A stretch of 64,000 nucleotides of DNA, taken from assembly GCA_023248535.1 (NCBI GenBank), contig JAHFEJ010000003.1:29403-93402 (forward strand). The letters are read 5' to 3'. The position numbers were made by a program, and so were the translations under genes. The notes beneath the pieces are model-generated. The model was not told the origin of the DNA. It was given only the letters and a program-made list of their open reading frames with translations, and ran no database searches. Position 1 is the stretch's first letter. Each line of letters opens with the position of its first letter. Below are positions 9,871 to 63,606 of this stretch, in pieces. This DNA is from Nitrospinales bacterium. GTDB taxonomy: Bacteria; Nitrospinota_A; UBA7883; JACRGQ01.

Positions 9871-9873
9871 AAA

Positions 9874-9952
9874 TGGTGGGCCCACCAGGACTCGAACCTG
9901 GGACAGCCCGGTTATGAGCCGGGAGCTCTAACCAACTGAGCTATAGGCCCAC
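9874..9952 (-). tRNA. tRNA-Met (anticodon CAU), CCA-encoded.
   Basis: Reverse complement reads GTGGGCCTATAGCTCAGTTGGTTAGAGCTCCCGGCTCATAACCGGG...GGTTCGAGTCCTGGTGGGCCCACCA, a cloverleaf with a CAT anticodon. Confidence 0.9.
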
Positions 9953-9996
9953 ACAATAAAAAAGAGCCGCGCGCCGTTGGCTGGCGCGGCGGCTCT
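9953..9996 (-). terminator. Intrinsic terminator between rpoD and tRNA-Met.
   Basis: GC-rich hairpin agagccgcgcgcc/ggcgcggcggctct, followed on the minus strand by TTTTTTAT. Confidence 0.5.
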
Positions 9997-10002
9997 TGAC
10001 GT

Positions 10003-11721
<1,719 letters not shown>

Positions 11722-11801
11722 ATCAAATTGGATCCTTATTAAATAAGGGTTCTCGATGAAAAATAAGAGATTAACGTACCATAAAATTCAGGCTCAAACA
11801 A

Positions 11802-13529
11802 TCATTCTTTCCGCTCCAGATTGTTAAACGCCTGGCGTTTCTTATCGGCAATATCCTCTTTTCGCATACGTTCGCCATCACGTTTTTTGAGGAAGTCATT
11901 GATAATTTGACTCTTTCTTCCTTCGTCCTCGTCACGTGTCTCCATTATTAGAGCCCGCATATTCCCTTTAAGTTCCAGATTGGGGCAACTTTCTATCAAT
12001 TCGCCGGTGGAGGTTCCCCCTTTTATCGCAAGTTCCGCCTGAAAATGCTCCAGCATCCGCCGGTATTCGGGGGTATGTAAATCTTCCGCTTTGAGGGACG
12101 CCAGCGGTCCGGCCAGCGTTTCCGGGAAATTCAGGATGATCTGGACGATCCATTTTTCCATCGGCGAGGCTGGGCGCGGCGGACGGCGGGCCGGTGGGGG
12201 CGTAGCAGGGGCGCCCTGGGCCGCTTGCGCTTGTGGCGGGGTGTGGCGGGGGGTAGTGCTCCTGATCTGTCCGCTGATGGCGGAGGCCGGTATACCGGTC
12301 CGCTCGGAGAGAAGCTCCACATAGCTGGCCCGCTCTATCGGGCCGGCAACGCGGGAAAGCTCCGGCAATAATGAGCGGATGGCGTCCGCTTTTCCCTCGG
12401 GCGTTGCGACATCGAATTTGCGGCAGGCCTGTTCTATCAGGTAGGTCATATAGGGGCGCGCGTTTTTCACGATCTCTTCAAACGCCGCCGGGCCTCCCTG
12501 CTTTATCAGGTCGTCGGGATCCACCCCGCCGGGGAGCATCGCCACGCTGGGGCGGATTTCGAGCTCGGCGGCCACTTCGGTGGCGCGTGCGGCGGCGCGG
12601 CGGCCGGCTTCGTCGCCGTCAAAGATCATGACCAGGTTGTGGGTGTACCGCTTGAGCGCGCGGCACTGCTGCGCCGTGAATGCGGTGCCGGAGGTGGCGG
12701 CTACATTTTCAAAGCCGCCCTGGTGCAGCGCGATGGCATCCATGTACCCTTCCACGATCATTATCCGGTTGGCGGCGCGGGCCTTGGCGGCGGCGAAGTT
12801 GAGCGCGTAGAGCACGCGCGATTTGTTGTAGGCCGGCGTTTCGGGGGAATTAAGGTATTTCGGCCCCTTTTCATCGTCCGCCAGCGCCCGTCCGCCAAAG
12901 GCGATCACCCGGTTATGCTCGTCCATTATCGGGAAAATGAGACGGTTGCGGAACCGGTCGATCGGGTTCCCGGCGGAAGAGAGCTTGGTCAGCCCCGCTT
13001 TGCCGATTTCATTGAGGGTGATTTTTTTGTCGACGAGGTGGCGGTAGAGCGAATCCCACGCGTCCGGGGCGTAGCCGATGCGGAATTTTTCAACCGTCTC
13101 AGCGGCCAGCGCCCGTTTTTTAATGTATTCGGCCACGAACGGGGGGGCGTTCTTGAGCTGCTGTTGGTAAAACTCGGCGGCCATTTTGTTGATGTTGTAT
13201 ATGTACGAGTTGTCTTCCCCCTCCTTGTCGCGCGGCAGGGGGATGCCGGCGCGCGCGGCCAGCAACGCCAGCGCATCGGGAAAGCTCATGTTTTCGTGCT
13301 TCATCACGAAGGTGATAACGTTTCCCCCTTCGCCGCAGCCGAAGCAGTGCCATATCTGGCGCGCCGGGTTGACATTGAACGAGGGGCTTTTTTCGGTGTG
13401 AAACGGGCAGCGCGCGGTGAAATTCGCCCCGCTTTTCTTAAGGGGAAGGTAGGAGGAAACGACATCGACGATATCGGCCGCTTCGCGGATGCGGTCGATC
13501 AACTCCTGCGGATACAGACCCGCCATCAT
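11802..13529 (-). CDS. dnaG: DNA primase DnaG.
   Basis: CHC2 zinc finger CPFHTEKSPSFNVNPARQIWHCFGCG, a TOPRIM domain, and operon context. Confidence 0.95.
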   Translation of the reverse strand: MMAGLYPQELIDRIREAADIVDVVSSYLPLKKSGANFTARCPFHTEKSPSFNVNPARQIWHCFGCGEGGNVITFVMKHENMSFPDALALLAARAGIPLPRDKEGEDNSYIYNINKMAAEFYQQQLKNAPPFVAEYIKKRALAAETVEKFRIGYAPDAWDSLYRHLVDKKITLNEIGKAGLTKLSSAGNPIDRFRNRLIFPIMDEHNRVIAFGGRALADDEKGPKYLNSPETPAYNKSRVLYALNFAAAKARAANRIMIVEGYMDAIALHQGGFENVAATSGTAFTAQQCRALKRYTHNLVMIFDGDEAGRRAAARATEVAAELEIRPSVAMLPGGVDPDDLIKQGGPAAFEEIVKNARPYMTYLIEQACRKFDVATPEGKADAIRSLLPELSRVAGPIERASYVELLSERTGIPASAISGQIRSTTPRHTPPQAQAAQGAPATPPPARRPPRPASPMEKWIVQIILNFPETLAGPLASLKAEDLHTPEYRRMLEHFQAELAIKGGTSTGELIESCPNLELKGNMRALIMETRDEDEGRKSQIINDFLKKRDGERMRKEDIADKKRQAFNNLERKE

Positions 13530-13636: not shown

Positions 13637-14086
13637 TCATTTCCCGGAGAGGACTTCTTTCACCAGGCGGCTCACCACGGCCCCATCGGCCTGTTTGCCG
13701 ATCTCCGCCATAACCCCCTTCATAACCTGCCCCATCTGCTTGATGTCGGGGTTGCCCATGGCGGCGGCGACGGCTTTCACCTTTTCGCGGATTTCGGCTT
13801 CGCCGAGTTGGGTGGGGAGGTAGCGCGTAAGGTATTCCACCTCTTGCTGCTCTTTTTCGGCCAGTTCCGGCCGGTTCCCCTTGGTGAACATTTCGACCGA
13901 TTCGCGGCGCTTTTTGATGGCGCTGGAGATCACGGCCAATACTTCCGTGTCGTCCAGCGCCGTTTTCTTTTCGATCTCGCGGTTCTTTATCTCGGATTTC
14001 ACCATGCGCAGCACTTCCACGGCCGCTTTGTCCTGGCCCTTGAAAGCGGCCTTAAAGTCCTCTTCGATCCGTGCTTTCAGCGGCAT
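13637..14086 (-). CDS. yqeY: GatB/YqeY-domain protein.
   Basis: Full-length similarity to the YqeY family. Canonical position between rpsU and dnaG. Confidence 0.85.
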   Translation of the reverse strand: MPLKARIEEDFKAAFKGQDKAAVEVLRMVKSEIKNREIEKKTALDDTEVLAVISSAIKKRRESVEMFTKGNRPELAEKEQQEVEYLTRYLPTQLGEAEIREKVKAVAAAMGNPDIKQMGQVMKGVMAEIGKQADGAVVSRLVKEVLSGK

Positions 14087-14106
14087 GTGAAACCCCTTTT
14101 CCGCGA

Positions 14107-14289
14107 TTAATAGCGGCTGTATTTCTTTTTCCGCGCCGCGATGATCTTCTTTTTCTTCTTCACGGACGGTTTTTCGTAATGCTCACGCTTGCGAATTTCG
14201 GACAATACGCCGATTTTTTCACACTGCTTCTTGAAACGTTTCAGCGCAAGCTCAAACGGCTCGCTTTCCCGTACTTTTATACCGGGCAA
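14107..14289 (-). CDS. rpsU: 30S ribosomal protein S21, with a TTG start.
   Basis: (M)[27 protein letters not shown]... matches S21. The RBS aggggtga lies 7 nt upstream of the TTG. Confidence 0.9.
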
Positions 14290-15378
14290 ACAACTCACCC
14301 CTCTCAATTATTTAATAATAACGGCTACAAGGTTAACGTAACGATTTCTGCGCCTTTTCCCATCAATGGGAAAAAGTGATACTAACATAGCCCGTAAGGG
14401 CGCGCAACGCTTAAAAAGTGAAATGCGGCTTTCGGGGCGGTTTTTTAAATTATGGAAAATAATTGATTAACTGCGCTAAAAAAAACGATGTTGGGATAAT
14501 CGATTCCGCATCGCTTAAAGGCTTTATCAATAGAAAAATATCTATTGATGCGTTGTCTGTTGGTTGGCGGGCTGGCAACAATTGAGGATATTGTTATAGT
14601 AGCGGCGACCTGTTCCCGTGGCAATATTGCTTGGTAGTTCAAGGCATTGTCTCTTGTTATGGCATTGCTGGTTAGTCTCGGTGAGGTGGTTGGGCGTAGA
14701 GCGGAGCTTCATGGGAAGGTTGAAAATACAATCGATCCGGCAAATGCTTAATAAGTCCTATTTGTCATAGGTTATTTTCTATGCGTTCCCGGCTGTTTTG
14801 TCCTGCCATATTGTTGGTGGTTTTTCAAAGCGAATTTAGGGCGAATGTATTTAATGCGCCAATGTAAGGCCTGGCGTCCCTAGACGGATAGATATTAATC
14901 AATTCGTATCACTTATCAAATGGTAAGCAAGTGTGCATCTAATTGTAATGACAATGTAAATTAGCCTGATACGATGTTGGTAATTTAAGGATCATAAGTG
15001 GGTCGACTCTAATTTTGGGCGGCTATGATTGATTTCTTTTAAACAAAGCGACTCCAAATTCCCTGATACCAACATTGCGAAGTAGCTAAAAATGGCTTGC
15101 GGAGGTTGTGAATGTATAGATATTAATGGATATGATGAGGGGCCTATGAGCCGACCCCGCCTTTTTTAAAGGGCGGTGTTGCCCGATGCCGTTTGAAGCG
15201 GAAAACAAGTCTGAAAAGGATTAGGCCGTGGCCGCTTTTTCTCTGGAAAAGATTTTCTCAAACTCGTTGAGGGCCTAGATCAGCAATGATGCCGATGCGC
15301 CCAACACTGGGCCGCCGCACGGCATTATGGTCACGCCGGAGGCTTCGGGGATTTCCTGGCGTGAGGGAGGGGAAAGTA

Positions 15379-15723
15379 TCAGCCGGGGGGCCAGTGCATC
15401 GGTCTTCCCCCCAGCAGGTGCATATGGAGGTGGAAAATCGTTTGCCCGCCATGAACCCCTTGGTTGACAACCAGTCTGAAGCCGTTATTTTCAAGCCCCT
15501 TCTTTTTGACCACTTCACGCGTGACGTGATACATGTCGTTGAGCAGCTCTTTATCGTCCTGTCCAAGGCTGGTGACGCCATCCACATGCTTTTTGGGGAG
15601 TATGAGATAGTGTTTTGGCGCCTGGGGGAATTTATCTTCTATAACGAGTATGGTGTCGGTTTCAAATATTTTATCGGACGGCAATGCCCCCGCGATAACT
15701 TTGCAAAAAATACAATTTTCCAT
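15379..15723 (-). CDS. HIT-family (histidine triad) nucleotide hydrolase.
   Basis: HIT motif HLHMHLLGG. The start is placed at MENCIFCKV. Confidence 0.85.
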   Translation of the reverse strand: MENCIFCKVIAGALPSDKIFETDTILVIEDKFPQAPKHYLILPKKHVDGVTSLGQDDKELLNDMYHVTREVVKKKGLENNGFRLVVNQGVHGGQTIFHLHMHLLGGRPMHWPPG

Positions 15724-15948
15724 AGTCTTCTTTATCCCCCGATTTACTTCATATCCTATTGCCATTTTACCTGTTTTGGGCATCAAAATTTAATTGCGGC
15801 AGGAGATGTGGAAACGTATTGAATCATGGCATCGCTGTAAAAAAGGGCGTGTTGCCACGCCGATGCCCGTTGGCGTACAATTAGCGCGGTTAAGGACAAG
15901 GGAGGACGCGCCCCCTGGCGCTTCGCGATATCAACTGACGGAGGAGTA

Positions 15949-16410
15949 ATGAACGCCGAACTTATCAATCCATTCCTGAAAGCAACCGTGAACGTTCTGT
16001 CCATGATGGCGTTTGTTAAGCCGGTGCCGGGAAAACCGTTTTTAAAGCATGACAACAAGGCGCAGGGGGATATCTCCGGCGTTATCGGCATGACCGGGCA
16101 CGCCCGGGGAGTGGTGGTGTTCAGCCTGTCTGAAGGGGCGGCGTTGAAAATTGTTTCTTCAATGTTGTCGGAAAGCTTTACCGAGCTTAATGCCGAGGTG
16201 AGCGACGCCGTTGGCGAACTTACCAACATGATATCCGGCGATGCCCGGCGCGAATTGGCCACCAAGGGGTTCAAATTCGAGGCCGGCCTGCCAAGCATTA
16301 TCAAAGGCAAAGGGCATATCGTCGAAAGCATGACCAAAGGGCCCACTATCGCCATTCCGTTCGACATCGATGGCGCCGCATTTGTTGTGGAAACCAGCTT
16401 TGAAGGGTAA
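15949..16410 (+). CDS. cheX: Chemotaxis phosphatase CheX-family protein.
   Basis: CheX/CheC-like fold signature (GDISGVIGMTG...VVFSLSE...ISGDARRELATKGF). Confidence 0.75.
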   Translation: MNAELINPFLKATVNVLSMMAFVKPVPGKPFLKHDNKAQGDISGVIGMTGHARGVVVFSLSEGAALKIVSSMLSESFTELNAEVSDAVGELTNMISGDARRELATKGFKFEAGLPSIIKGKGHIVESMTKGPTIAIPFDIDGAAFVVETSFEG

Positions 16411-49413: not shown

Positions 49414-50088
49414 ATGAAAAAGCTGATACGCGGTATTGTCGAGTTCCGGAGCAAGCTGCGCCCGGAGTACGCCGAGACATTCGCCCGGCTGGCATTGGGG
49501 CAAAACCCGGATACCCTCTTCATCGCCTGCTCCGACAGCCGCGTGGTGCCCAATCTCTTTGCTTCCACCGATCCCGGCGATCTTTTCGTCATCCGCAACG
49601 TCGGCAATCTCATTTCCCCCTGCGGGGCGGACGGCGTATCGCTGGGGGACGTGTCGGAGGCGGCGGCCATCGAGTATTCGGTTCTCTCTCTCGGCATTTC
49701 CAATATCGTCGTCTGCGGCCACTCGGAATGCGCCGCGATGAAGGAATTGATAGCCACCAGCGCGGGGGTCGATATGCCGATGTTCAAGACTTGGCTGTAC
49801 AACGGCTATCCTTCGCTGGCCCGGATGGATGCCGCCACATGGATAGACCAAAAGCTTGCGCCGCATAACAGGCTTTCGCAGGCGAATGTCCTCCAGCAGT
49901 TGGAACATCTCAAGAGCTACCCTTCCGTGAAAAGGCTGATGGACGCCGGGAAACTCTCCTTCCATGGCTGGTGGTTCGATATAGCCCATGCCGAGGTTTT
50001 CGCCTACGAAGAAGAGCTGGGGTTCGTGTTGATCGACGAGACGGAAGCGCAACGCATCATCCAGCGTATGAACCGCAAAAACCCTTAG
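49414..50088 (+). CDS. Beta-class carbonic anhydrase.
   Basis: CSDSRV...HSECAAM zinc ligand motifs. Confidence 0.9.
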   Translation: MKKLIRGIVEFRSKLRPEYAETFARLALGQNPDTLFIACSDSRVVPNLFASTDPGDLFVIRNVGNLISPCGADGVSLGDVSEAAAIEYSVLSLGISNIVVCGHSECAAMKELIATSAGVDMPMFKTWLYNGYPSLARMDAATWIDQKLAPHNRLSQANVLQQLEHLKSYPSVKRLMDAGKLSFHGWWFDIAHAEVFAYEEELGFVLIDETEAQRIIQRMNRKNP

Positions 50089-50231
50089 CGCCGTTTTCAA
50101 TAATTCTGAAATTCCGGAGGATGCACCCTACCCATAAACGTATGGGGCATGGAAGCGGCTAAAGGGCCTGGGGTCTTGCTTTTAGCATTTTCCGAAAGGC
50201 TGCAAAGCAAGACCTCAGAAGTTCCACTTCA

Positions 50232-50636
50232 TCAGAGGATCGGGGCGTCCTTGTTCTCTTTCTTGCCTGCGGCGTATTTCTTGAAGGACTCCTTTCCTTC
50301 TTCATGCCACCAGGCATCATAGTGATTCCAGTCGCCGCATTCGCCGGCATCCTTCCTCGTCCATCCGCACCATCCGCCGTAGCGGTGTCCGTGATGGCCG
50401 TGCCGATGTCCGATGGAGCCGAACAGCAGCCGCGCCAGGATCAACAATCCCAACGCTTGCATGTAGGAAATTGTTCCCAAGGCGAAGACGGCAGGGAACA
50501 GGGCATTCCAGAGCAGTTGCACCACAAATCCGACAACCAGAATTGCCGCACCGGCAAATAAAACGCAGCCAAAGCAGCGGCAGTAGCAGGGTCGGTTGGT
50601 GCACTCTTTTTTATCGGAGGCACATTTATCAAACAT
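50232..50636 (-). CDS. Small Cys/His-rich membrane protein (putative metal-binding).
   Basis: CxxC/CxC cluster near the N-terminus, two TM helices, and a HRHGHHGHRYGGWCGW segment. The start is chosen at MFDKCASD, which has an RBS. Confidence 0.5.
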   Translation of the reverse strand: MFDKCASDKKECTNRPCYCRCFGCVLFAGAAILVVGFVVQLLWNALFPAVFALGTISYMQALGLLILARLLFGSIGHRHGHHGHRYGGWCGWTRKDAGECGDWNHYDAWWHEEGKESFKKYAAGKKENKDAPIL

Positions 50637-50760
50637 GGCTTTTTCCTTTCCGTTATCGGTTAACAACACGGATAAGCGAGCCTCGCTCATGCTTATATTC
50701 TACGTCCGATTTGACCCGGTGGGCTTTTTATCAGGCTTTTAAGGGAATCTTTTGAAGATG

Positions 50761-50796
50761 AAAAAAATGGGGTGGACAGTGGGAGGTGCCCACCCC
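50761..50796 (-). terminator. Intrinsic-terminator-like hairpin plus U7 inside the 5' leader of the Cys/His-rich protein gene (attenuator/riboswitch-like).
   Basis: Minus-strand ggggtgggcacctcccactgtccacccc followed by ATTTTTTTC. Confidence 0.45.
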
Positions 50797-50844
50797 TAAC
50801 CGGAGAGGAGGAAATAGTAGGTATTTCCACCTGCACCAATAACC

Positions 50845-50862
50845 AAGCAATCGCCGTGCCAA
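50845..50862 (-). promoter_or_regulatory. Sigma-54 (-24/-12) promoter consensus on the minus strand.
   Basis: Minus strand reads TGGCACggcgaTTGCT (TGGCAC-N5-TTGC). Confidence 0.4.
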
Positions 50863-51227
50863 TGGTTTTCCCTTTATTGTCAATGTCATGCATAAGGTCG
50901 GAAAACCGCGAGTGTATACAAAAGTATTATTTGTGCAGGAAAAAGTTATACATCTGCCAGCGACAGTGCCAGCGCGGGATCGCCGCGCCGAAAAAAAGCT
51001 ATGAGGCGGCAAGCTAATGCAATAGAATGTGCACATATGCGAATACACACCAATCCGAAGCTGACCATCTCATCGGGCAAGTGGCGCGTTGCGCGCTCGA
51101 ACGTTGCGTTCACCTTTCCTGTCCGCCTTCTCCTCCTAAGCCTTTAATCCCCCTACGGCTTTAGGCGCCACTTTTTCGCCATTTATGGCGGCAATCGTTT
51201 AATATAGGCAGGGTAAAGGACAAAAAT

Positions 51228-53700: not shown

Positions 53701-53787
53701 GCCGGAGTGGCGAAATTGGTAGACGCAGGGGACTCAAAATCCCCCGTAGGCGACTATGTGCCGGTTCGAGTCCGGCCTCCGGCACCA
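53701..53787 (+). tRNA. tRNA-Leu (anticodon CAA), class II with a long variable arm, CCA-encoded.
   Basis: GCCGGAGTGGCGAAATTGGTAGACGCAGGGGACTCAAAATCCCC...GGTTCGAGTCCGGCCTCCGGCACCA. Confidence 0.9.
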
Positions 53788-53952
53788 CTATTCCAAGGAT
53801 CATGAACCGGGCTTGAAGCGAGGCTCCGGCGCGACCGAAGAGGGAGCGCAACCGGACAGGGACGTCCGGTTAGGAGGCGAGCCGGCCAGGACGAGCCGAA
53901 GCGTGACGCGCAGGCGAGTGATGGCGAGTCCGGCCTCCGGCACCACTATTCC
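53768..53952. repeat. Perfect 27-bp direct repeat of the tRNA-Leu 3' end (gagtccggcctccggcaccactattcc), at 53768-53794 and 53926-53952. att-like.
   Basis: Exact repeat read directly from the sequence. A 131-bp GC-rich spacer lies between the copies. Confidence 0.6.
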
Positions 53953-54136: not shown

Positions 54137-54502
54137 TTAGTAGCGTCCGCCGCCGCCACCGCCGTAACCACCACCACCGCCGCCACGGCCGCCGCGGCCA
54201 CCGCCGCCGCCGCCGAAGCCGCCACGGCCACCGCCACCGCCACCGGTGCGGGGTTCTTGCGGTTTTGCCTCGGCCACGCGCAAGGCGCGCCCTTCAACAC
54301 TGACACCGTTGAGTTGGGCTATCGCCGCTTCCGATTCTTCATCGGTAGCCATTTCAACGAAACCGAACCCTTTGCAGCGATTGGTTTCGCGGTCAATGAT
54401 TACCTTTGCCGATTCCACCGTTCCCGCTTGCTCGAACTGTTCGCGCAGCGATTCGTCGGTTGTGGAATAAGGCAGGTTGCCCACATACAGTTTCTTACCC
54501 AT
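54137..54502 (-). CDS. Glycine-rich RRM-type RNA-binding protein.
   Basis: RNP2 LYVGNL, RNP1 KGFGFVEM, and a C-terminal RGG/GGG tail. Confidence 0.85.
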   Translation of the reverse strand: MGKKLYVGNLPYSTTDESLREQFEQAGTVESAKVIIDRETNRCKGFGFVEMATDEESEAAIAQLNGVSVEGRALRVAEAKPQEPRTGGGGGGRGGFGGGGGGRGGRGGGGGGYGGGGGGRY

Positions 54503-54721: not shown

Positions 54722-55492
54722 ATGCGAACAAAGCGGTGGCTTTATCTGGGCATTGGGGCCGCCGCCGGGTTTTTTGGCGGGCTGGTCGGGCTGGGCGGGG
54801 GTATCGTCATGGTGCCGCTGTTAACCGGCGCGGCGGGATTTTCACAACGCCGCGCCCATGGCACCAGTTTGGCTGCGCTGGTTTTCACCGGTATTGCGGG
54901 GGCCGCCACATATGCGTTGTCCGGCGCGGTTGATTTACTGGCGGCGGCGGCGTTGGCATCCACCGCCGTGCTTTCGGCGGGGGCCGGCGCGCGGAACGCG
55001 CATCACCTTCCGGCGGAAAAGCTCAAGCGGTATTTCGGGATTTTTCAACTGGGGATCGCCGCGTTGCTCTTCGCGAAACCGTGGCTTGTGCAAGGGGGCG
55101 CTCCCGCCGTGTGGACTAAAATTATTTTATTGCTGGCCACAGGGGCCTTCACAGGGTATCTCTCCGGGATGATGGGGGTTGGCGGCGGATCGATCATGGT
55201 TCCCGCCATGGTGCTGCTGGCCGGGATGGGGCAGCATGTGGCGCAGGGGAGCGCGCTATTGGCGATGGTTCCGGCGGGCATTGCCGGCGGGGCGGCGCAC
55301 CACCGGCTGGGGAACGTGGCGAAGGATGCGTTGTGGTGGCTGCTGCCGGGGATCGTGGCGGGCACGTTTGCCGGGGGGCGGGCGGCTGCGGCTATCGACG
55401 GCGATTGGCTGCGGATGCTGTTTGCCTGTGTGCTGGTTTATGTGGGGACGCGGTACGCCATGACCCCCGCGGCGGCGGAAAAACCGGCATAA
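54722..55492 (+). CDS. TauE/SafE-family (DUF81) sulfite/anion exporter.
   Basis: Two repeated G-rich TM motifs (GGLVGLGGGIVMVP / GMMGVGGGSIMVP). Confidence 0.85.
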   Translation: MRTKRWLYLGIGAAAGFFGGLVGLGGGIVMVPLLTGAAGFSQRRAHGTSLAALVFTGIAGAATYALSGAVDLLAAAALASTAVLSAGAGARNAHHLPAEKLKRYFGIFQLGIAALLFAKPWLVQGGAPAVWTKIILLLATGAFTGYLSGMMGVGGGSIMVPAMVLLAGMGQHVAQGSALLAMVPAGIAGGAAHHRLGNVAKDALWWLLPGIVAGTFAGGRAAAAIDGDWLRMLFACVLVYVGTRYAMTPAAAEKPA

Positions 55493-55589
55493 CCGGCTTT
55501 CATGCTTTTCGTTCTTTTCAGCCAGAGGCGCCCATCCCCTCCAAATCCTCCAGCCGCTCCAAAAAACCGGAAAATACCCCCGCGGAAGG

Positions 55590-55630
55590 ATAAATTGTTT
55601 GGGCATGAATTGTCACAAAATTGTGAGATT
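55590..55630 (+). promoter_or_regulatory. Candidate operator upstream of the WYL regulator gene: three AATTGT repeats at helical spacing, including the inverted repeat TCACAA-aa-TTGTGA.
   Basis: taaATTGTttgggcatgaATTGTcacaaaATTGTgagatt. Confidence 0.35.
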
Positions 55631-55764
55631 TCAAAAATCCTAAATCCTAGGTTTCTTCTACCAAGACCGAAAAGAGCCATCTCCATTCATTGGGCTTGAC
55701 GAACCAGCATAAAGCGGCATCTGCGATATGTGCGATACGCAGAAAAAGGACGTAAAATGATTTC

Positions 55765-56778
55765 ATGAAAAAGGATTCACGGCCACTTTTAACGCCGAGC
55801 CAGAAACAGATAGCAATCATATTTAGACTTCTTGCTTCGCCTGAAGGCATTGCAGTTTCGGCACTCATGCGGGACTACGAATTATCCTATAGGACATTCA
55901 GAAATTATTTGACTCATTTTCAAAACATACCGGATTTGGCCGATGACTTGGGTGACCCGCTCGTCATGGAAGATATCCGAGAAGGCGTTAAATATCTTCG
56001 GCTGAAACTTTCCATGATAGACGGCTCAAAAACTTCAGAACAACGTGCGCTGGCATTTTTATCTGGGATTTTATTGGAATTCCTTGAAGGAACCACTTTT
56101 TATGAGTCGTTACAGCAATTGGGTCACATCCATTCAAGCGATGGCATGAGGATTTTAGGGGTCAAATATCTTGACAGAAAAATATATTCAAAATTGCTAC
56201 ATCCCAAAATTTACGCCGGCAAAAGCGAGATTTTGAAGAAATCTATTTCAGTAGTCTTAAATCAGCGAAAAATCGACGTTAAATACAAAAGCCGAACGTC
56301 TAAATCGTTAGAGATGATAAAGCAATTTAAGCCGTACACTGTGCTGCATTACAGGTCAGGTCTTTATCTGGTGGGGGAATGCACACGCCAAGAAATGGGA
56401 AAGATTATTTACTTGGCAATCGAGCGTATCGATGAGTTAAAGGTTTTAAAGGAATCTTTCCATTACCCTGGCAATTATTCTCCCCAAAAGCTTGTATCAG
56501 ATTCGTTCGGGATAATGAAAGGGGGCAAAAGTTTCCATGTAGAGCTATTGTTCAAAAAGAACGTTGCGGAGCAAATCAAGGAGAGGCTCTGGCATAAAAC
56601 TCAAAAGATAGTCCAACTAAAAAACAAAGAGATTAAGCTCACCTTTACCGTATCTTCTCTTGACGAAGTGATTAATTGGGTGTTGAGCTACGGTGATAAC
56701 GTCAAAGTGCTGCAACCTGTCGAATTAAAGAATCTGGCGCTGAAGAGAGCACAGGAATTCCTCTTTCATAATTCTTAA
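55765..56778 (+). CDS. HTH-WYL-WCX transcriptional regulator (BrxR/CapW-like).
   Basis: N-terminal wHTH (IAVSALMRDYELSYRTFRNYL), central WYL-like motif LHYRSGLYLVGEC, and a C-terminal extension. Low GC. Confidence 0.65.
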   Translation: MKKDSRPLLTPSQKQIAIIFRLLASPEGIAVSALMRDYELSYRTFRNYLTHFQNIPDLADDLGDPLVMEDIREGVKYLRLKLSMIDGSKTSEQRALAFLSGILLEFLEGTTFYESLQQLGHIHSSDGMRILGVKYLDRKIYSKLLHPKIYAGKSEILKKSISVVLNQRKIDVKYKSRTSKSLEMIKQFKPYTVLHYRSGLYLVGECTRQEMGKIIYLAIERIDELKVLKESFHYPGNYSPQKLVSDSFGIMKGGKSFHVELLFKKNVAEQIKERLWHKTQKIVQLKNKEIKLTFTVSSLDEVINWVLSYGDNVKVLQPVELKNLALKRAQEFLFHNS

Positions 56779-56851
56779 ATATTTCTCTTTGTCCCTCAAT
56801 TAATTTGAAAAGTGAAAAATTCCTGCAAGTAAATATGGTTTATATAGACCA

Positions 56852-57721
56852 ATGGAATCTTACAATAAATATCTGCCTGATGTCAGTGCAGTCGTGCATG
56901 AAGCAATCAAGCATTTAGAAATGCTCTACCATCGAAAAGAATCAATCCACGGCATTCCAACGGGTTTTAAAAAGCTAGATAAAATGACGGCTGGATTTCA
57001 GGGTGGAGACCTCATCGTCTTCGCGGGCCTTCCCTCAACGGGGAAGAGTCTCATTTGCAGTAACATGGCGGAACATATGGCCGTATATGAAGCAAGGAGT
57101 GTTGCCTATTTTTCATTAGAAATGAGCAGCATTCAGGTGGTGTTACGTATGATTTCATCTATGGCCGCTATCGATATCCTGAAAATGAGAGCCGGTTTCC
57201 TGTCGGAAGACGATTGGTGCAAGATAAAAGCTGCGGGCAACAGTCTCACGGCTTCAAAAATCCATTTTGATGACGCACCAGCCCAGACCGTGTATGACAT
57301 TCGTTGGAAGGCAATTCTTAGGAAGGCTAAAGCCGGGTTGGACATACTATTTATTGATGACCTTGGACTTATTATGGAGCATCGCCAACCCGAAAATCGT
57401 ACACATGAAATTCGAGAAATCATCCGTTGCCTTAAAGATCTAGCACGCGAATTAAATATTCCAGTCGTTGTCACGTCAAAGCTCATGAAAAAAGGTAAAG
57501 GCCCCCTTGGCAAGCAGCCTCAAGAGGTCAATTTTGGTGAGTTCGGAGCCATTGAGCAGTTCGCTGATCTGGTGTGCCTTGTTAATCGCAAAATATATGA
57601 TTTCATCGAAGAAGCAGGGAGTTCATCAGCAGAGATCATTATTGTTAAGCATCGTAATGGCCCGATAGGCAAAATCCCTTTGGTTTTTTCAAATAGCTTT
57701 ATCAGATTTGATAACCCGTAA
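56852..57721 (+). CDS. Stand-alone DnaB-C-terminal-like RecA-fold ATPase (no N-terminal helicase or primase-binding domain).
   Basis: Walker A GLPSTGKS, SLEMS, Walker B ILFIDDLGLI and an arginine-finger region, as in the DnaB/KaiC/RadA ATPase core. Only 289 aa. Confidence 0.65.
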   Translation: MESYNKYLPDVSAVVHEAIKHLEMLYHRKESIHGIPTGFKKLDKMTAGFQGGDLIVFAGLPSTGKSLICSNMAEHMAVYEARSVAYFSLEMSSIQVVLRMISSMAAIDILKMRAGFLSEDDWCKIKAAGNSLTASKIHFDDAPAQTVYDIRWKAILRKAKAGLDILFIDDLGLIMEHRQPENRTHEIREIIRCLKDLARELNIPVVVTSKLMKKGKGPLGKQPQEVNFGEFGAIEQFADLVCLVNRKIYDFIEEAGSSSAEIIIVKHRNGPIGKIPLVFSNSFIRFDNP

Positions 57722-57786
57722 TATGCGATGCCTGATATTGAAAGAAAGATGTTGAGAAGGACGGTGAGAACCCTAATAGAAAAAGA

Positions 57787-58788
57787 GTGGATAATATGAA
57801 GGGGATTGCAAATAATCCAGTCATTTCCGGTGAAACACTCAATACGAGTCCATGCTTCAGCTTTTTACGCGACACTGGTTCACTTCATGTTGATTTTAGT
57901 CCGTGGATTAGCCTTTTAATGCGCATCGGCCCGGCGGAAACGGAGTTTCAGGTTGAATGCCAATATGGCAGTGAGGTGTGGTTGCCAGAGGCGCCATACT
58001 TTGAGCCTAAACTGCCATTCCTCGACTTCAACGATCCTGCAATAAATAGTTTCTTGGATCGAATTGAAAAGCGCGATGTAGAGGCGTCAAAATCGTTCCC
58101 AGAATACCAGCTTACTTTTCTTAGAATATTATCAAGTGCACCTGAAATGCATCAGTTGCTGGATTTTCGGCTTTTGGCCGTGCTCATTGCAGAGGCCGTA
58201 GCTTCCGGGGAGGTCGATATGCAAGAACTTCCAGCAATATTAAGGAATGATCGAAAAGAAATTCTTATCCGCGTTGCGGGATGTGAAGAAACCGGGCAGG
58301 AAGCATTGAACATCTTAAATAAACTACAACTATCCAATCTCGGTTTGGGTAATAGAATGTGGTGCAATGACGGCAATTTGGCGGTAATAAAGCGGGCGTT
58401 GAAATCAAAAACCAGCGTGATGTCGCTTAACAGGTATCCAATAATCACACAGTCATTGTTACGGTTATCGCTTGATGCGCCAGAGCTGGTGTCTTCGCAA
58501 TTGATGAGAACGGAGATTGCCAATAATCCTAATGACATCGAGGAAACCATTTTGACGATACGGGCGGTGTTCGATCAAGCAAAGCGCATGAAAAGGGCGA
58601 AAATACAAAAAAATCAGTTAACGGTTAAGTATGTTCTGGGATATGCCTATGGGGGGTACTTCGTGTGCAGAGAGCAGGGAGATGACGGAAACGCTGATTT
58701 GATGATTAGGCTAATGGAGAGCATAGGCCTTAATTGGCCAAAAGATAAAGATTTGTTAGGTGAAGATGGTTATCGTGGCTTGATTTAA
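57787..58788 (+). CDS. Hypothetical protein (island gene 3).
   Basis: Long ORF with island-type codon usage. No recognisable motif. Confidence 0.45.
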   Translation: MDNMKGIANNPVISGETLNTSPCFSFLRDTGSLHVDFSPWISLLMRIGPAETEFQVECQYGSEVWLPEAPYFEPKLPFLDFNDPAINSFLDRIEKRDVEASKSFPEYQLTFLRILSSAPEMHQLLDFRLLAVLIAEAVASGEVDMQELPAILRNDRKEILIRVAGCEETGQEALNILNKLQLSNLGLGNRMWCNDGNLAVIKRALKSKTSVMSLNRYPIITQSLLRLSLDAPELVSSQLMRTEIANNPNDIEETILTIRAVFDQAKRMKRAKIQKNQLTVKYVLGYAYGGYFVCREQGDDGNADLMIRLMESIGLNWPKDKDLLGEDGYRGLI

Positions 58789-58870
58789 AGAGTGCTGGGA
58801 TTCGGTATAGGTTTGCCCTCCTTACGAATAAGTTGTATAAATAATCAACAATTAATGTTGGGGAGATTTC

Positions 58871-59839
58871 ATGAAAAGAGGCTTGTCTCCAGAGTTTGCC
58901 AAGCAGTTGGAAGATAAGGGAGGTCTTCTAAACAAGTTCCTGGAAGTGGTCAAGAAGGATTCCACTCTTTGTCTTGAGATTCGGAACAATGCCATAAATG
59001 TTTACTATAGAGGTGGAAGCTTATTCAAAATTGAAGATAAAAAAAATGGATTTGAATATGCCATTTCATTCAATAAAAAATATTTCATGGGAAATTCTCA
59101 TAGTGATTTGCCCCAAATTATAAAAGCGGAAAATGACGTTGCATCGGAATGGATAAGAAAGGTGCCCGATCTGAAAAATGCAATGGATTTATTTTTTGGA
59201 AAGCATCCTAAAAATGAACGCGAATTTCAGCAGCTTATTTTAAGGGAAAACAACCAAGGAGCGTTGGGGCGAAGCACGGACTATTTTATTTGTGACATAG
59301 AATATGACAATCGGGAAGGTGCTCGATTTGACCTGATAGCGGTCAAGTGGCCAAGCACACCAAAGGACAGAAAAAATGCCAAGTACCTTAGATTGGCCTT
59401 TATTGAGAAAAAATATTTAGACGGCGCTTTGAGGAGTGCATCAACACCAGCCAAAATGGAAAGGCCAGGAATATCGAAACACTTACGCGACATGCGCGAA
59501 TACCTTAAGCCAAGCACCGTCGAGAATTTAAAAAAGGAAATGAAAGAAGTAGTCAACCTGAAGAAGAAATTAGGATTGATTAACATTCCCGATGAAATTG
59601 AAAGCTTCAGCAATGAAAAACCCGAATTTATTCTATTATTGGCAAACCACGATCCTGCCTCGAAAATATTAATTGAGGAACTCCGCAAAATTGATGAAAA
59701 GAAATTATCTGACATGCCGTTTGATTTAAAATTCGCTGTGAGCAATTTTATGGGTTACGGATTATTCAATGAGTGTATATACACTTTGAGCGAATTTAAG
59801 GCTCGATTTGCAAAGCAAATATATTCGGGGCCCGCCTAA
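58871..59839 (+). CDS. Hypothetical protein (island gene 4). Possible PD-(D/E)xK-like nuclease core.
   Basis: YFICDIEYD...RFDLIAVKW has the hydrophobic-strand-D ... hydrophobic-strand-xK spacing. This is weak evidence. Confidence 0.45.
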   Translation: MKRGLSPEFAKQLEDKGGLLNKFLEVVKKDSTLCLEIRNNAINVYYRGGSLFKIEDKKNGFEYAISFNKKYFMGNSHSDLPQIIKAENDVASEWIRKVPDLKNAMDLFFGKHPKNEREFQQLILRENNQGALGRSTDYFICDIEYDNREGARFDLIAVKWPSTPKDRKNAKYLRLAFIEKKYLDGALRSASTPAKMERPGISKHLRDMREYLKPSTVENLKKEMKEVVNLKKKLGLINIPDEIESFSNEKPEFILLLANHDPASKILIEELRKIDEKKLSDMPFDLKFAVSNFMGYGLFNECIYTLSEFKARFAKQIYSGPA

Positions 59840-59853
59840 GCGCCTTTAGGAAA

Positions 59854-61095
59854 ATGAATAACAATGTGAAGGTGGTAATTCACCGTGGGTCTCATGAAAT
59901 TGGGGGAACATGCATATCCATTACTACTCCCAAAACAAAACTGCTTCTTGATGCTGGAATGCCGCTTTCTGATGCCAGCGTCGGGATTGATATAAACTCC
60001 ATCAAGCCCGATGCGGTTTTTATAAGTCACCCGCACACCGATCATTTTGGAATGATGGAGACAGTTGATCCATCCATTCCAGTATATATGGGTCAGTTAA
60101 GCAAGAAGTTGATCGACTCGACAAGGATGTTCATTCGGAAAAGGCCCCTCATTAATAAAACTGTCATTTTTAAGCCGGGGGAAACAATTGTCGTTAATAA
60201 TGACATTCATGTCACCCCGCATCTTGTTGACCACTCCTCCGCCGAATCTTTTGCCTTTGAAATTGAGGCCGATGGAAAACGTCTTTTTTATAGCGGCGAC
60301 TTCAGGGGACATGGGAACAAAGGCCAGCTTTTTGAGCAGATGTTGAAAAATCCTCCTAAAAATATTGATGTGATGTTTATGGAAGGTACATGCATCCAGA
60401 GGAGTAACGACATCTTCCCAACTGAACATTCCGTGTTTAAAGTGATATTGGAAGTGCTGGAAGGACAGGCCAATATTTCCTTTTTGATTTCCTCCGCCCA
60501 AAACATAGATCGCTTAGTATGGGCACATCATGCGTGTCAGGATGCCGGTAAAATCATGGTGATTGATTTGTATATGGCATGGGTTTTGGAAGCCCTTTCT
60601 TCTGTTTCAGATAAAACACCCACCATGGCCAGCCCAAACGTTAAAGTCTTTATAGATTTCAACTTCTATAGCGCATTAAATAACAACCGCCTGGCCTATA
60701 ACGATTTCATACACCGGGCATTCCAGAAAAGGGTCAAAGAAGAGCAATTGCGGGCAAATCCTGCTGGATACCTATACTGTTCCAGAATTTCCGGATGCAG
60801 AAGGATGAAGGCCTTTGCCAAGCATGGAAAGATAAACATTATTTATTCCCAGTGGAGAGGATACCTTGAAAAGAAAGAGGATCGCAAAGTACAGGAGTTC
60901 AATGCTCTGGCAGAAAAGAACAATTATGTTTATGCGCATACGAGCGGACATGCGCCATTAAGCGATTTGAAAAAGCTGGCCCAAGCAATTAATCCCCAAA
61001 TGCTTGTCCCGATACATACTGAGCACGCAAGTGAATTTAAAAAGCATTTCAGCAATGTTTATGAGGCCACGGACAACTTTGGTTTTGAAGTGTAA
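59854..61095 (+). CDS. Metallo-beta-lactamase-fold beta-CASP-family nuclease (RNase J/CPSF73-like architecture).
   Basis: MBL motifs LLDAG, HPHTDH, H in VTPHLVDH, and SGDFRG. beta-CASP motif A-like MEGTC and motif C HTSGHA. Confidence 0.65.
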   Translation: MNNNVKVVIHRGSHEIGGTCISITTPKTKLLLDAGMPLSDASVGIDINSIKPDAVFISHPHTDHFGMMETVDPSIPVYMGQLSKKLIDSTRMFIRKRPLINKTVIFKPGETIVVNNDIHVTPHLVDHSSAESFAFEIEADGKRLFYSGDFRGHGNKGQLFEQMLKNPPKNIDVMFMEGTCIQRSNDIFPTEHSVFKVILEVLEGQANISFLISSAQNIDRLVWAHHACQDAGKIMVIDLYMAWVLEALSSVSDKTPTMASPNVKVFIDFNFYSALNNNRLAYNDFIHRAFQKRVKEEQLRANPAGYLYCSRISGCRRMKAFAKHGKINIIYSQWRGYLEKKEDRKVQEFNALAEKNNYVYAHTSGHAPLSDLKKLAQAINPQMLVPIHTEHASEFKKHFSNVYEATDNFGFEV

Positions 61096-61121
61096 GCTGG
61101 CCATTAAGATTCGGAGGGTAA

Positions 61122-61604
61122 ATGAAAAAAGACACGGCAAAAAAACTCAAGATGGTCATTGAGGGAATTGCCCAAAAAATTGAGCGCCATAAAAAACTGG
61201 TTGCTGGCGGGTGTCCAGCTGTGGGCATTTTCTGGTTTCTTAAAAAGAAGTCTGGACGGCTTGAGATGTATGCACCCGGAACTCCTGGGATTCCCTATAA
61301 ACTGGGCGAAGACGATGGGGAGTTTATTAACTACCCCGTTAGCCACTACCATGAATGGCGTGACATGAAAGTAATGTTCAAGAAGAATGTGAAGAACCGT
61401 ATTTATCCTGAACCATTTGATGCCTACATAGACAAAGAATATGATGACGCTCCACGCGGGAGGATTGTTTATTCAAAGTTGAATAAGAAATTCTACGTTC
61501 ATGTGACAAAATCTCTTATGAAGCCACGAATCAAAACGCTTATTTGCAAGGAATTCAGACTACCGGCAAACACAGTCTTCATGAATGATGAGCATTATGG
61601 CTAG
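61122..61604 (+). CDS. Hypothetical small protein (island gene 6).
   Basis: ORF with island codon usage, 27 bp after the beta-CASP gene. Confidence 0.45.
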   Translation: MKKDTAKKLKMVIEGIAQKIERHKKLVAGGCPAVGIFWFLKKKSGRLEMYAPGTPGIPYKLGEDDGEFINYPVSHYHEWRDMKVMFKKNVKNRIYPEPFDAYIDKEYDDAPRGRIVYSKLNKKFYVHVTKSLMKPRIKTLICKEFRLPANTVFMNDEHYG

Positions 61605-61794
61605 GGTGTAGGGCCGATCAATTTCCCGCCGTTTTCGTGGCTTTTGAGGTCGTGATTATCATTTTTCAAGATCAGCTAAGGCAAGAAGTCGGTATAAGTT
61701 ACCTAAATATAATTGTTTATGCTTCACGCGGAATGCCTCTCCCGCGGAAAGTGCGGTATACTCAAAGTGCACTACCGAAAGGAGCCGATCGCAA

Positions 61795-63606
61795 ATGCAA
61801 AACATACCGATTGCCGCGAAAAAAAATCCGTTCACCCTCATCGGCGACCAGAAAATCATCATCGACTACGCCGCCATTTACTGCCGCACGCCGCAGGAAT
61901 TGCTGAAGAGCACGCTCTTCCTCGAAATACTTACCCGGTTCATCCGCCGCATCGAGGAAAAGCGGACCCCCGGCTACCTCTTTCTGCGCGAACGCCGCCC
62001 GGATCTGAAACCGGAGGCGATCCCCGATTTTGTGCTGCGGCTGCTCCGCCTGCTGGTGGGACACAGCGCGGAAGAGATCATCGCGCTGAACCCCGATTAC
62101 GGGAGCGTGCTGAACGTGGGAAACGACCGCGAATGGATATACGAGCTGCGGCGCGACCTGTACAACTACTGGCGGCGCATCGAGCGGTACATCTTCCTTG
62201 AGATGCCGCACGGCTCCGGCCAGAAGTCGATCGACATCTATCACGACCAGTTCATGAGCGGCTGCGAGGACCTGCGCGCCCTCATCCTGCGCACGAACCG
62301 CCTCATCGGCGAGCACCTCTCCGGCAAAGACCCCAAGGTCTACCGCCAGCTCCCCGCCGGGGCGAACATGGCGATGCTGCTGGAGCGGATCGACTGGAAA
62401 TGCCCGTCGTTCCTGCAGGCGTTCCGGGACGTGGAGTTCATCCGCATCACGCTCATCGAGCCGCCGCTGATCCTCTACTCGAAATCCAACACGCGCAAGG
62501 GGACGTTTCTGGAGATACCCGGCCCCCACGGCCCAATCACGGTGGACCCTTCCGAGTGGTTCTGTTTTCCCGCCAAGGTGGGCGAGCTGACCGCGTTTAT
62601 CTTTTTCCATCTCGACTACATCGCGCAGGCGCTCTCGTTGTCGAACCTGTTCGAGCTGGCGGAATACGACGACATCAACGGCAAGACGCCCGACCTGGCG
62701 GTGCTGTTCGGCGTGCCGGGGGAGGGGATGAAGGAGTACACCGAATTTTTCGAGGACCGCCAAAGCGGCATCATCACCGGCATGGTGAAGCGCAGCGCCG
62801 ATGTCGGCTACTTCGGCTACTTCAAGAAGATGACGCTGACGCTGCACAACGTGGCGATGCTGAACCGGGGCCGCCTGCCGCTGCACGGCGCGATGGTGCA
62901 CATCAAGCTGAAGGCGGGGGGTTACGCCAACATCGTCCTCGTGGGGGATTCCGGCGCGGGCAAGAGCGAAACGCTGGAGGCGTTGCGCACCATCGCCGAC
63001 GAATATTTCAGCGACATCAAGGTGATCTTCGACGATATGGGGAGCCTCGCCATCAAGGAGGACGGCCGCGTACACGGCTACGGCACCGAGATCGGCGCAT
63101 TCGTCCGGCTGGACGACCTCCACCCGAAATACGCCTACGAGGAAGTGGACCGCTCCATCTTCATCAACCCCGACCGGAAGAACGCCCGGCTCATCATGCC
63201 GATAACCGCCTACCACCACGTGGTGATGGGCTACCCGGTGGATATGCTGTTCTACGCCAACAACTACGAGCACCTGGGCGACGACAAACCGGCGGTGGAG
63301 TTTTTCAGCCGCGCGGATGAGGCGCTGCAGGTGTTCCGCGACGGCTCGCGCCTGGCCAAGGGAACCACCGACGAGAAGGGGCTGGTCCGCACCTACTTCG
63401 CCAATCCGTTCGGCGCGCAGCAGCGCGAGGCGAAGCACGAGAAGGTGGCGGCGGCGGTCTTTGCGCGGATGTTCGAGACCGGCGTGAAGGTCGGGCAGGT
63501 GCGCACGCGTCTCGGCATTCCCGGCTTCGAGCAGGAGGGGCCGAAAGCGGTGGCGGAAAAACTTTACGAGGTACTGAAGGAACTGGCCAAACGGCCCGGA
63601 CGCTGA
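61795..63606 (+). CDS. Large protein with a C-terminal HPr-kinase-like P-loop domain (hypothetical kinase).
   Basis: LVGDSGAGKSETLEAL matches the HprK/PEPCK-type Walker A (GDSGxGKSE). The N-terminal 350 aa are unassigned. Confidence 0.5.
   Translation: MQNIPIAAKKNPFTLIGDQKIIIDYAAIYCRTPQELLKSTLFLEILTRFIRRIEEKRTPGYLFLRERRPDLKPEAIPDFVLRLLRLLVGHSAEEIIALNPDYGSVLNVGNDREWIYELRRDLYNYWRRIERYIFLEMPHGSGQKSIDIYHDQFMSGCEDLRALILRTNRLIGEHLSGKDPKVYRQLPAGANMAMLLERIDWKCPSFLQAFRDVEFIRITLIEPPLILYSKSNTRKGTFLEIPGPHGPITVDPSEWFCFPAKVGELTAFIFFHLDYIAQALSLSNLFELAEYDDINGKTPDLAVLFGVPGEGMKEYTEFFEDRQSGIITGMVKRSADVGYFGYFKKMTLTLHNVAMLNRGRLPLHGAMVHIKLKAGGYANIVLVGDSGAGKSETLEALRTIADEYFSDIKVIFDDMGSLAIKEDGRVHGYGTEIGAFVRLDDLHPKYAYEEVDRSIFINPDRKNARLIMPITAYHHVVMGYPVDMLFYANNYEHLGDDKPAVEFFSRADEALQVFRDGSRLAKGTTDEKGLVRTYFANPFGAQQREAKHEKVAAAVFARMFETGVKVGQVRTRLGIPGFEQEGPKAVAEKLYEVLKELAKRPGR

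Follow-up and report, generated by a model that had tools for sequence, protein, structure and literature searches.

A stretch of 64,000 nucleotides (nt) from Nitrospinales bacterium (GenBank assembly GCA_023248535.1, contig JAHFEJ010000003.1, positions 29,403 to 93,402 of the forward strand), below called the window, carries an open reading frame (ORF) of 289 codons at positions 56852–57721 (+), named g2, whose product corresponds to the linker helix and the C-terminal domain of the replicative helicase DnaB. The ORF is intact, without internal stop or frameshift, and lies in an inserted cassette of six genes (g1 to g6). g2 is a real, intact and foreign DnaB paralogue without an N-terminal domain (N-less), unique in public data and the conserved partner of nothing. 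Its features are listed below, with residues numbered as in g2 and their counterparts as in BstDnaB (Bst).

56852–57721, + strand: g2, linker helix plus RecA-type C-terminal domain, a headless DnaB paralogue of 289 amino acids (aa), based on the ORF and on profile and PDB alignments.
56882–56935, + strand: linker helix, residues 11–28, aligned with BstDnaB 162/163–179 and with TIGR00665 from position 148.
57026–57049, + strand: Walker A GLPSTGKS, residues 59–66; K65 (Bst K216) is kept.
57113–57127, + strand: motif H1a SLEMS, residues 88–92; the catalytic Glu E90 (Bst E241) is kept.
57344–57373, + strand: Walker B ILFIDDLGLI, residues 165–174; D169 (Bst D320) is kept.
57473–57490, + strand: degenerate H3 TSKLMK; the Gln and Arg of 'SQLxR' (Bst Q362 and R365) are both replaced by Lys.
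57527–57568, + strand: degenerate H4/DNA-loop region VNFGEFGAIEQFAD; Bst D379 is replaced by N, R381 by G, S383 by F and D389 by F, while E382 and G384 are kept.
57647–57664, + strand: KHRNGP, Lys/Arg finger K266/R268 (Bst K418/R420), kept.

The initial annotation, made from the sequence of the window, had described a 289-aa protein consisting only of the DnaB-type ATPase core, with the motifs GLPSTGKS, SLEMS and ILFIDDLGLI. All three are present at the residues listed. The alignment to PF03796 (DnaB_C) that had been proposed as a check covers the full profile (positions 1–255 of 255) over residues 34–288 of g2, with an E-value of 2.7e-70 in the Pfam search. The same search gave no match to PF00772, the DnaB N-domain, in agreement with the predicted absence of this domain. 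The PF00772 domain is the reported mediator of the interaction between DnaB and the DnaG primase.

A missed upstream exon or a frameshift had been named as what might overturn this description, and neither was found. g2 starts at the earliest start codon downstream of an in-frame stop, and upstream extension is impossible. Using tblastn, three full-length DnaBs aligned with the window only through their residues 164–443, at 56882–57715. Queries consisting of the DnaB N-domain alone reached E-values of 0.02–0.2 at best in the 64-kb window, at unrelated positions, revealing no N-domain relic. With no extendable ORF and no such relic in the window, there is therefore no frameshift or missed exon able to supply the domain. 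A fusion between g1 and g2 is ruled out as well: the complete WYL gene g1 ends 73 nt before g2 in a different frame, and this spacer comes after its stop codon.

The linker, which had also been described as missing, is in fact present. TIGR00665 is aligned with g2 from model position 148 and residue 163 of BstDnaB is aligned with g2 residue 12; residues ~11–33 of g2 (VSAVVHEAIKHLEMLYHR...) therefore correspond to the DnaB linker helix. The N-terminus of g2 falls in the flexible stretch right before this helix, a natural domain boundary. A 292-residue PDB chain named 'Replicative DNA helicase' (6kza_A) could be aligned with g2 over chain residues 4–283.

For three genes of the cassette, public gene calls differ in the start codon although the DNA is 100% identical: g2 (289 aa in ENA versus 214 aa from M76 in Logan), g3 (333 aa for the longest ORF versus 330) and g5 (413 aa from 59854 versus 409 aa from 59866). 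For g2, sequence variation is ruled out as the cause, since the DNA is identical and the start call alone differs. The part before M76 contains Walker A and further sequence conserved as in DnaB, which favours the 289-aa form over the M76 form. The gaps between g2 and its neighbours are tight (73 nt on the g1 side and 65 nt on the g3 side), the DNA has a GC content of ~44%, and the GC content at third codon positions (GC3) is the same as in the other cassette genes.

The profile TIGR00665 scores g2 with 261.5 bits (E-value 1.3e-77), without reaching its curated cut-off of 385.25, and all 15 DnaB-type NCBIfam models score it under their cut-offs. Compared with these 261 bits for DnaB, the KaiC, RadA/Sms and RSF1010 RepA-type models give 32, 22 and 23.8 bits, respectively, and by such scores g2 reads unambiguously as a DnaB-type protein. 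Membership of the KaiC, RadA(Sms) or archaeal RadA-RadB families is not supported by the 32 and 22 bits. The same goes for the RSF1010 RepA-type family (NF004629), with a cut-off of 156 bits and a match limited to residues 45–104. The NCBIfam models of SPI-7-type and phage_DnaB helicases match g2 with E-values of 1.4e-57 to 1.7e-57. Among the PHROG families, phrog_19 (4.9e-55) and phrog_243 (1.1e-36) are matched, the latter nearly end to end. The match of g2 to mad8 of the MADS defence system is weak and partial (E-value 1.3e-8, 32.7 bits), and other mad genes were not found in the cassette.

Among 5.8 billion proteins, the sole high-identity match of g2 is g2 itself, and no truncated relatives were found in this set or in cluster look-ups. 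The next-best matches are full-length proteins of 414–460 aa named 'replicative DNA helicase', of the chromosomal type and with 44–46% identity, such as those of one Deltaproteobacteria and one Thermodesulfobacteriota metagenome-assembled genome. Phage and plasmid records stay below these cellular DnaBs at 37–41.6% identity, P1 Ban having 37%. A phage or plasmid origin by best match, which the initial annotation had considered as a counter-argument, is thus unsupported. Scans of viral contigs with g2, g3 and g6 gave no match. Eight DnaB-type genes from phages or phage collections were fetched (L088–L095); all encode proteins of 411–481 aa with N-domains and most lie within replication modules. 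Unlike these loci, g2 has no replication-gene neighbourhood, with no rplI-dnaB, initiator, loader or primase alongside. Since g2 is nearer to full-length cellular DnaBs than to the N-less families, it is, as judged from its matches, an independent, lineage-specific truncation of a chromosomal-type DnaB that stands outside the known N-less families, and not a member of these by descent.

The conservation of individual residues was scored against a panel of 13 DnaB-family helicases. This panel comprises three deltaproteobacterial-type DnaBs, the C-terminal domains of BstDnaB and Vibrio DnaB, Acinetobacter DnaB, P1 Ban, P22 gp12 and phage helicases of Ralstonia, Bacillus, Staphylococcus, Mycobacterium and Microbacterium. 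A column with the same residue in at least 11 of the 13 members was counted as conserved, resulting in 59 columns, of which g2 retains 41 (0.69). Leave-one-out retention amounts to 0.92–1.0 for the cellular DnaBs and P1 Ban and to 0.69–0.86 for the other phage helicases.

Several of the residues lost by g2 are present in all 13 members of the panel: the Arg before Walker A (R60L, Bst R211, AARP to AGLP), the Tyr beside Walker B (Y170D, Bst Y321, DYLQL to DDLGL) and the residues replaced in Q210K (Bst Q362), R213K (Bst R365) and D227N (Bst D379). Others are found in 12 of the 13, namely those replaced in E216K, R229G (Bst R381), S231F (Bst S383) and D237F (Bst D389). E230 and G232, the equivalents of Bst E382 and G384, are kept. 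The losses are unevenly distributed, with 13 of 23 conserved positions lost in residues 205–250 versus 5 of 36 elsewhere (Fisher p=0.001, for a region chosen post hoc). With regard to the BstDnaB structure with single-stranded DNA (ssDNA), we take K418/R420 to be the trans-acting finger, Q362 to be the gamma-phosphate-sensing Gln and R381 to be the loop Arg that contacts ssDNA in the central channel. A nucleotide site and linker that are intact next to degraded H3/H4 motifs would not be expected from uniform decay; the pattern fits a ring ATPase that would be without a helicase-like grip on ssDNA.

The cassette around g2 is bounded by two 9-bp direct repeats. Its remaining features are as follows.

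55579–55587: left 9-bp direct repeat CCCGCGGAA, a target duplication or attachment (att) core, from junction mapping.
55588–61740: cassette of 6,153 bp with six same-strand genes, delimited by composition, the empty site in relatives and junction mapping.
55765–56778, + strand: g1, first gene of the cassette, a helix-turn-helix (HTH)-WYL-WCX transcription regulator of 337 aa, from Pfam, PADLOC and PDB matches.
57787–58788, + strand: g3, an ORFan of 333 aa (330 aa in public calls, from 57796), from sequence searches and an AlphaFold2 (AF2) model.
58871–59839, + strand: g4, 322 aa, unannotated family with a PD-(D/E)xK-like motif D154...E179-x-K181, from the family alignment and an AF2 model.
59854–61095, + strand: g5, a beta-CASP nuclease of the metallo-beta-lactamase (MBL) fold, 413 aa, with HPHTDH at residue 59 and a C-terminal RMMBL motif, from Pfam and PDB matches.
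61122–61604, + strand: g6, an ORFan of 160 aa with a strong GGAGG ribosome-binding site, from inspection of the ORF and this site.
61741–61749: right 9-bp direct repeat CCCGCGGAA, from junction mapping.

The cassette is clearly foreign, horizontally acquired mobile DNA. Its genes have a GC content of 0.38–0.44 and a GC3 of 0.41–0.47, while host genes have values of ~0.60 and 0.69–0.88. It is inserted between tauE and a gene for a 603-aa protein. Empty sites, located via members of 90%-identity clusters, were found in the relatives L128, L129, L130 and L124, where the order is RRM-protein gene, tauE, ~140 nt and the 603-aa gene. Instead of two repeats, a single related copy, CCTCGCGGAA, is present there. 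The flanks of L128–L130 are 85–90% identical in nucleotides to those in the window, and L124 is somewhat more distant. A search of metagenome contigs with the 603-aa protein only retrieved relatives of 25–59% identity without synteny, and thus no empty site.

The 9-bp repeat is not accompanied by a recognisable means of insertion: neither an integrase nor a transposase turned up in profile searches of the cassette proteins, and inverted repeats at its termini did not exceed the shuffle control. Initiator, primase and partition genes and origin-like repeats were not found in the cassette either. Rfam gave no match in 55300–62000, and promoter and terminator scans of the cassette remained at chance level. 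The intergenic gaps measure 14–82 nt and contain no non-coding debris. By gene content, the cassette is a mosaic of mobile-element genes, with g4 and g5 as its only widely conserved unit.

The proposed location of g2 in an island under a WYL regulator could be confirmed, as g2 follows g1 in this horizontally acquired cassette. g1 matches the Pfam domains WCX (1.1e-14) and WYL (3.7e-6) and the PADLOC WYL profile (6.4e-25). Its best PDB sequence matches are 7u02, 7tzv and 8tp8 (E-values ~1e-7), named 'WYL domain-containing protein' or 'DeoR-family transcriptional regulator'. PADLOC returned no match for g3 to g6, and the regulated genes belong to no recognised defence system.

Homology of g3 is confined to a few PcfJ-like proteins, over their N-terminal ~270 aa; their PcfJ domain, with its conserved HCV.SY motif, is absent from g3. 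Its distant relatives number four among 1.84 billion representative proteins, all four of which have a C-terminal PcfJ domain; no relic of such a domain was found in the window. The AF2 model of g3 is good for residues 22–270, without a fold match in PDB or BFVD, and a literature search on PcfJ only turned up the C. elegans pCFJ plasmids. The closest relative of g3 is full-length and lies at 3944–5158 of locus L087, which stems from the same sequencing project. Also encoded there are a WYL regulator sharing 31% identity with g1 and an MBL nuclease sharing 45% with g5, in a context of DNA polymerase A, HNH and AAA genes, without DnaB_C and g4. The locus looks like part of a phage, plasmid or other mobile element. 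For g6, no family, PDB or viral match was obtained.

The family of g4 counts 915 matches at about 50% identity, in which D154, E179 and K181 are invariant. No Pfam domain matches g4 and the family profile found nothing among the PDB sequences. The AF2 model has a predicted local distance difference test (pLDDT) score of 84, and its top fold match is the Hachiman nuclease HamA, a weak one (E-value 0.023, probability 0.57). For g5, Pfam matches were obtained for Lactamase_B_2 (1.7e-14) and RMMBL (8.9e-7), together with partial matches to RNase J, aCPSF1 and Cas14; in the PDB, it matches 2az4 and RNase J.

The pair was followed across 82 other g4 loci, i.e. 80 from a one-genome-per-species scan of many phyla plus L003 and L005. 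A g5-type MBL gene adjoins g4 in 58 of the 82, spread over many phyla. Homologues of g2, g3 and g6 are found at none of them, and neither is any DnaB_C gene. A WYL gene lies directly upstream of the module in two loci only (L023 and L037). The other neighbours are variable and often of a restriction or defence type, such as REase-ARP/PDDEXK_13, Mrr, type I R subunits, methylases, AbiEi, BrxA and ShosA. Nucleoside triphosphatases (NTPases) also occur (UvrD-like in L003, AAA_5 in three loci, SNF2 and a type I R subunit), without a recurrent third partner or ATPase partner among the loci examined. The search for homologues of g2 in known defence islands that had been suggested was therefore without result, given the lack of a truncated relative and of DnaB_C at the g4 loci. 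The pair g4+g5 can be considered an unannotated two-gene module and a candidate uncharacterised defence or repair system. With ~900 members of the g4 family in many phyla, and being absent from PADLOC, this module has a wider reach than g2.

The window also contains the host genes dnaG (11802–13529, –) and rpoD (10003–11721, –), together at 10003–13529. Since the host DnaG has a DnaB-binding domain, a canonical DnaB is implied to be encoded elsewhere in the host. Near the cassette, the RRM_1 RNA-binding protein gene (54137–54502, –) encodes a Gly/Arg-rich C-terminal tail that is made up of degenerate 9–12-nt tandem repeats (54138–54257), and the length of this protein varies among relatives (95, 117 and 121 aa). 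In L124, a block of ~6.5 kb with TetR, DUF2141 and MacB/ABC transporter genes lies between accD and the RRM gene; this block is absent from the window. The last 21 nt of a tRNA-Leu(CAA) gene (53701–53787) and the next 7 nt (53767–53794) are repeated perfectly over 28 nt, 158 nt downstream (53925–53952). The arrangement resembles an att-type scar left at the tRNA by an element that had integrated or been excised. Further GC dips of 0.44–0.51, compared to ~0.59, are located at 8001–10000, 14001–16000 and 50001–51000, one of them beside a tRNA-Met (9874–9950). The ORFs in these dips (8591–9316, 15286–15822, 15783–16367 and 50232–50690) have no Pfam matches, and the dips may be additional small foreign insertions.

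The reading favoured here, with a probability of roughly 0.4, is that g2 is a non-replicative, translocation-impaired DnaB-derived ATPase, or a mimic of DnaB, which would assist a mobile nuclease cassette. In this cassette, g4 and g5 would form the effector core, with expression being set by the WYL regulator g1 and with g2 serving as an accessory ATPase or DnaB mimic. The protein might form ATP-binding rings or co-assemble with DnaB-type subunits, processive translocation on ssDNA presumably having been lost. Its most likely specific role, on speculation, is that of a platform or decoy which would bind proteins recognising the C-terminal tier of DnaB, e.g. the helicase loaders of invading elements. 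Alternatively, it might bind DnaB itself as a poison subunit. Either way, binding could couple replication interference to nuclease action, which is again speculation. The roles as a sensor, translocase or decoy that the initial annotation had suggested for g2 are likewise conjectural. As a DnaB mimic, g2 would tie the replication of an invader directly to immunity or replication arrest.

The most detailed version of this idea is a 'replisome decoy', in which an ATP-binding, non-translocating headless DnaB ring captures loaders or DnaB-hijackers, or poisons DnaB, and so licenses the g4/g5 nucleases under an ssDNA-sensing WYL regulator. Taken as a whole it is a long shot, and if true it would represent a new logic for sensing invader replication.

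A DnaB-derived accessory ATPase or mimic is consistent with the sparing of every nucleotide-site residue while the losses cluster in residues 205–250. It is also consistent with the intact 289-codon ORF, the tight spacing, the discrete insertion with its 9-bp repeat and the WYL regulator at the head, and with the conservation across phyla of g4+g5, often near restriction- or defence-type genes or NTPases. Several points weigh against it. The M76 start in one public call would remove Walker A, and no recognisable Shine-Dalgarno sequence precedes the ATG of the 289-aa form, while g1, g4, g5 and g6 have one. Orthologues of the truncated form were found nowhere in the data searched; g2 is absent from 82 of 82 other g4 loci as well as from the related WYL/PcfJ-like/MBL locus L087. 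The neighbouring g3 likewise has the appearance of half of a larger protein, and two adjacent 'half genes' suit decay equally well. Finally, no precedent for a DnaB-mimic, decoy or helicase-loader-decoy defence component was found in the literature.

Several of these points lead to the strongest alternative, in which g2, a former replicative DnaB, and g3, formerly PcfJ-like, are functionless leftovers of a larger mobile element, and the working part consists of g1 with g4+g5 and perhaps g6. Among the cassette genes, these two alone seem to be half of something longer, and each occurs just once in public data. The missing Shine-Dalgarno sequence and the disagreement of gene callers on the start of g2 agree with this view, as does the presence of g4+g5 without g2 or g3 at every other locus. 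In addition, g2 has lost residues that are kept by very divergent phage DnaB-type helicases. However, g2 differs from the nearest DnaB in ~55% of its amino acids and yet has no stop or frameshift in 289 codons of AT-rich DNA, although neutral drift should give some. g2 is cut precisely at the domain boundary that precedes the linker helix, the residues of the nucleotide site are all kept with the losses clustered in H3/H4, and the short gaps hold no non-coding debris. A decayed origin of g2 and g3 is considered somewhat unlikely, though it deserves to be taken seriously.

In another scenario, g2 is an active minimal motor, i.e. a working RecA-core ring helicase or translocase that feeds target DNA to the g4/g5 nucleases, as part of a defence or repair module resembling Hachiman HamB-HamA. 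In favour of this, g2 keeps the linker helix and an unaltered set of ATP-site residues, the top, albeit weak, fold match of the g4 model is HamA, and some g4 modules elsewhere directly adjoin the NTPases or helicases mentioned above. N-less proteins of the DnaB family can also unwind DNA. The N-truncated gp80 of mycobacteriophage Wildcat still does so (PMC4523182), and the N-domain of H. pylori DnaB was reported to be dispensable in vitro, according to the passage of PMC2761005 that cites Nitharwal 2007. These two cases contradict the blanket rule in the initial annotation that such truncated proteins are not replicative helicases. What stands of that claim is that g2 itself is not a canonical replicative DnaB, given the absent N-domain, the score of 261 versus 385 bits and the lack of replication synteny. 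Against an active motor, g2 has substitutions at the H3 Gln (Bst Q362) and at the Arg of the ssDNA loop (R381), which are retained in all or nearly all of the 13 helicases, the most divergent phage ones included; the g4+g5 pair has no recurrent ATPase partner, and the 82 other loci lack a DnaB_C gene. The loss of the invariant H3/H4 residues is a better argument against a helicase function of g2 than the absence of the N-domain. An active motor is thus improbable.

A helicase for the replication of the cassette or of an excised circle, like RSF1010 RepA, the SPI-7-type island DnaBs or P1 Ban, is hardly tenable: helicases of the DnaB family are indeed encoded by mobile elements, the SPI-7-type and phage_DnaB models and P1 Ban (37%) match g2 and the cassette is clearly mobile DNA, but genes for an initiator, a primase, an integrase or partition were not found in it and neither were origin-like repeats, the phage helicases fetched all have N-domains and mostly lie among replication genes, the RepA-type model stays far under its cut-off and the invariant helicase residues are lost.

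Returning to the accessory ATPase or mimic, N-less DnaB_C proteins are usually passed as 'helicase', and the pattern of g2, with the ATP site and the ring-forming linker kept and the DNA-gripping and H3 residues lost, suggests that the fold has been domesticated for a purpose other than that of a helicase. g2 being a singleton, conclusions on it do not generalise without experiments.

Compared to known systems, g2 is 44–46% identical to bacterial replicative DnaBs (TIGR00665; PF00772+PF03796; BstDnaB, PDB 2r6a/4esv) over the linker and C-terminal domain, with a PDB E-value of 5.5e-58. It shares with them the Walker A Lys, the SLEMS Glu, the Walker B Asp and the K/R finger. It differs in the absent N-domain, the score below the equivalog cut-off, the replaced H3/H4 residues and its location in a foreign nuclease cassette. 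RSF1010 RepA is a ring helicase of the DnaB/RecA superfamily which, with about 280 aa, consists of the core only. Unlike this type (NF004629, 23.8 bits), g2 has no plasmid replication genes nearby. The RecA-core-only DnaB relatives of mycobacteriophages, such as Wildcat gp80 (PMC4523182), and PHROG 243 are alike in being a single-domain core without N-domain, but they lie in phage replication modules and g2 does not.

WYL regulators of the DriD type sense ssDNA (PMC12041258). As in WYL-regulated loci, the HTH-WYL-WCX protein g1 heads a same-strand operon, though the genes downstream correspond to no recognised defence or damage-response system. With Hachiman, which combines the HamB helicase with the PD-(D/E)xK nuclease HamA, the cassette shares an NTPase gene beside nuclease genes and the weak HamA fold match of g4. 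Nucleases of the MBL fold, e.g. HamM, are established defence effectors (PMC12799240). In contrast to Hachiman and HamM, g2 is of the DnaB type and not of superfamily 2 (SF2), g5 is a beta-CASP and not a ComEC-like MBL protein, and the cassette has no trypsin-like protease.

Stand-alone DnaB_C ORFs of unknown function are also encoded beside type XI-like retron reverse transcriptases (preprint 10.64898/2026.05.14.725207). According to the same preprint, the WYL-associated and DnaB_C-associated lineages are mutually exclusive. Pfam found no reverse transcriptase domain in g1 to g6 and Rfam found no non-coding RNA in 55300–62000, which sets the cassette apart from a retron module. What it has in common with these retron loci is that DnaB_C forms an ORF of its own within a locus of the defence type.

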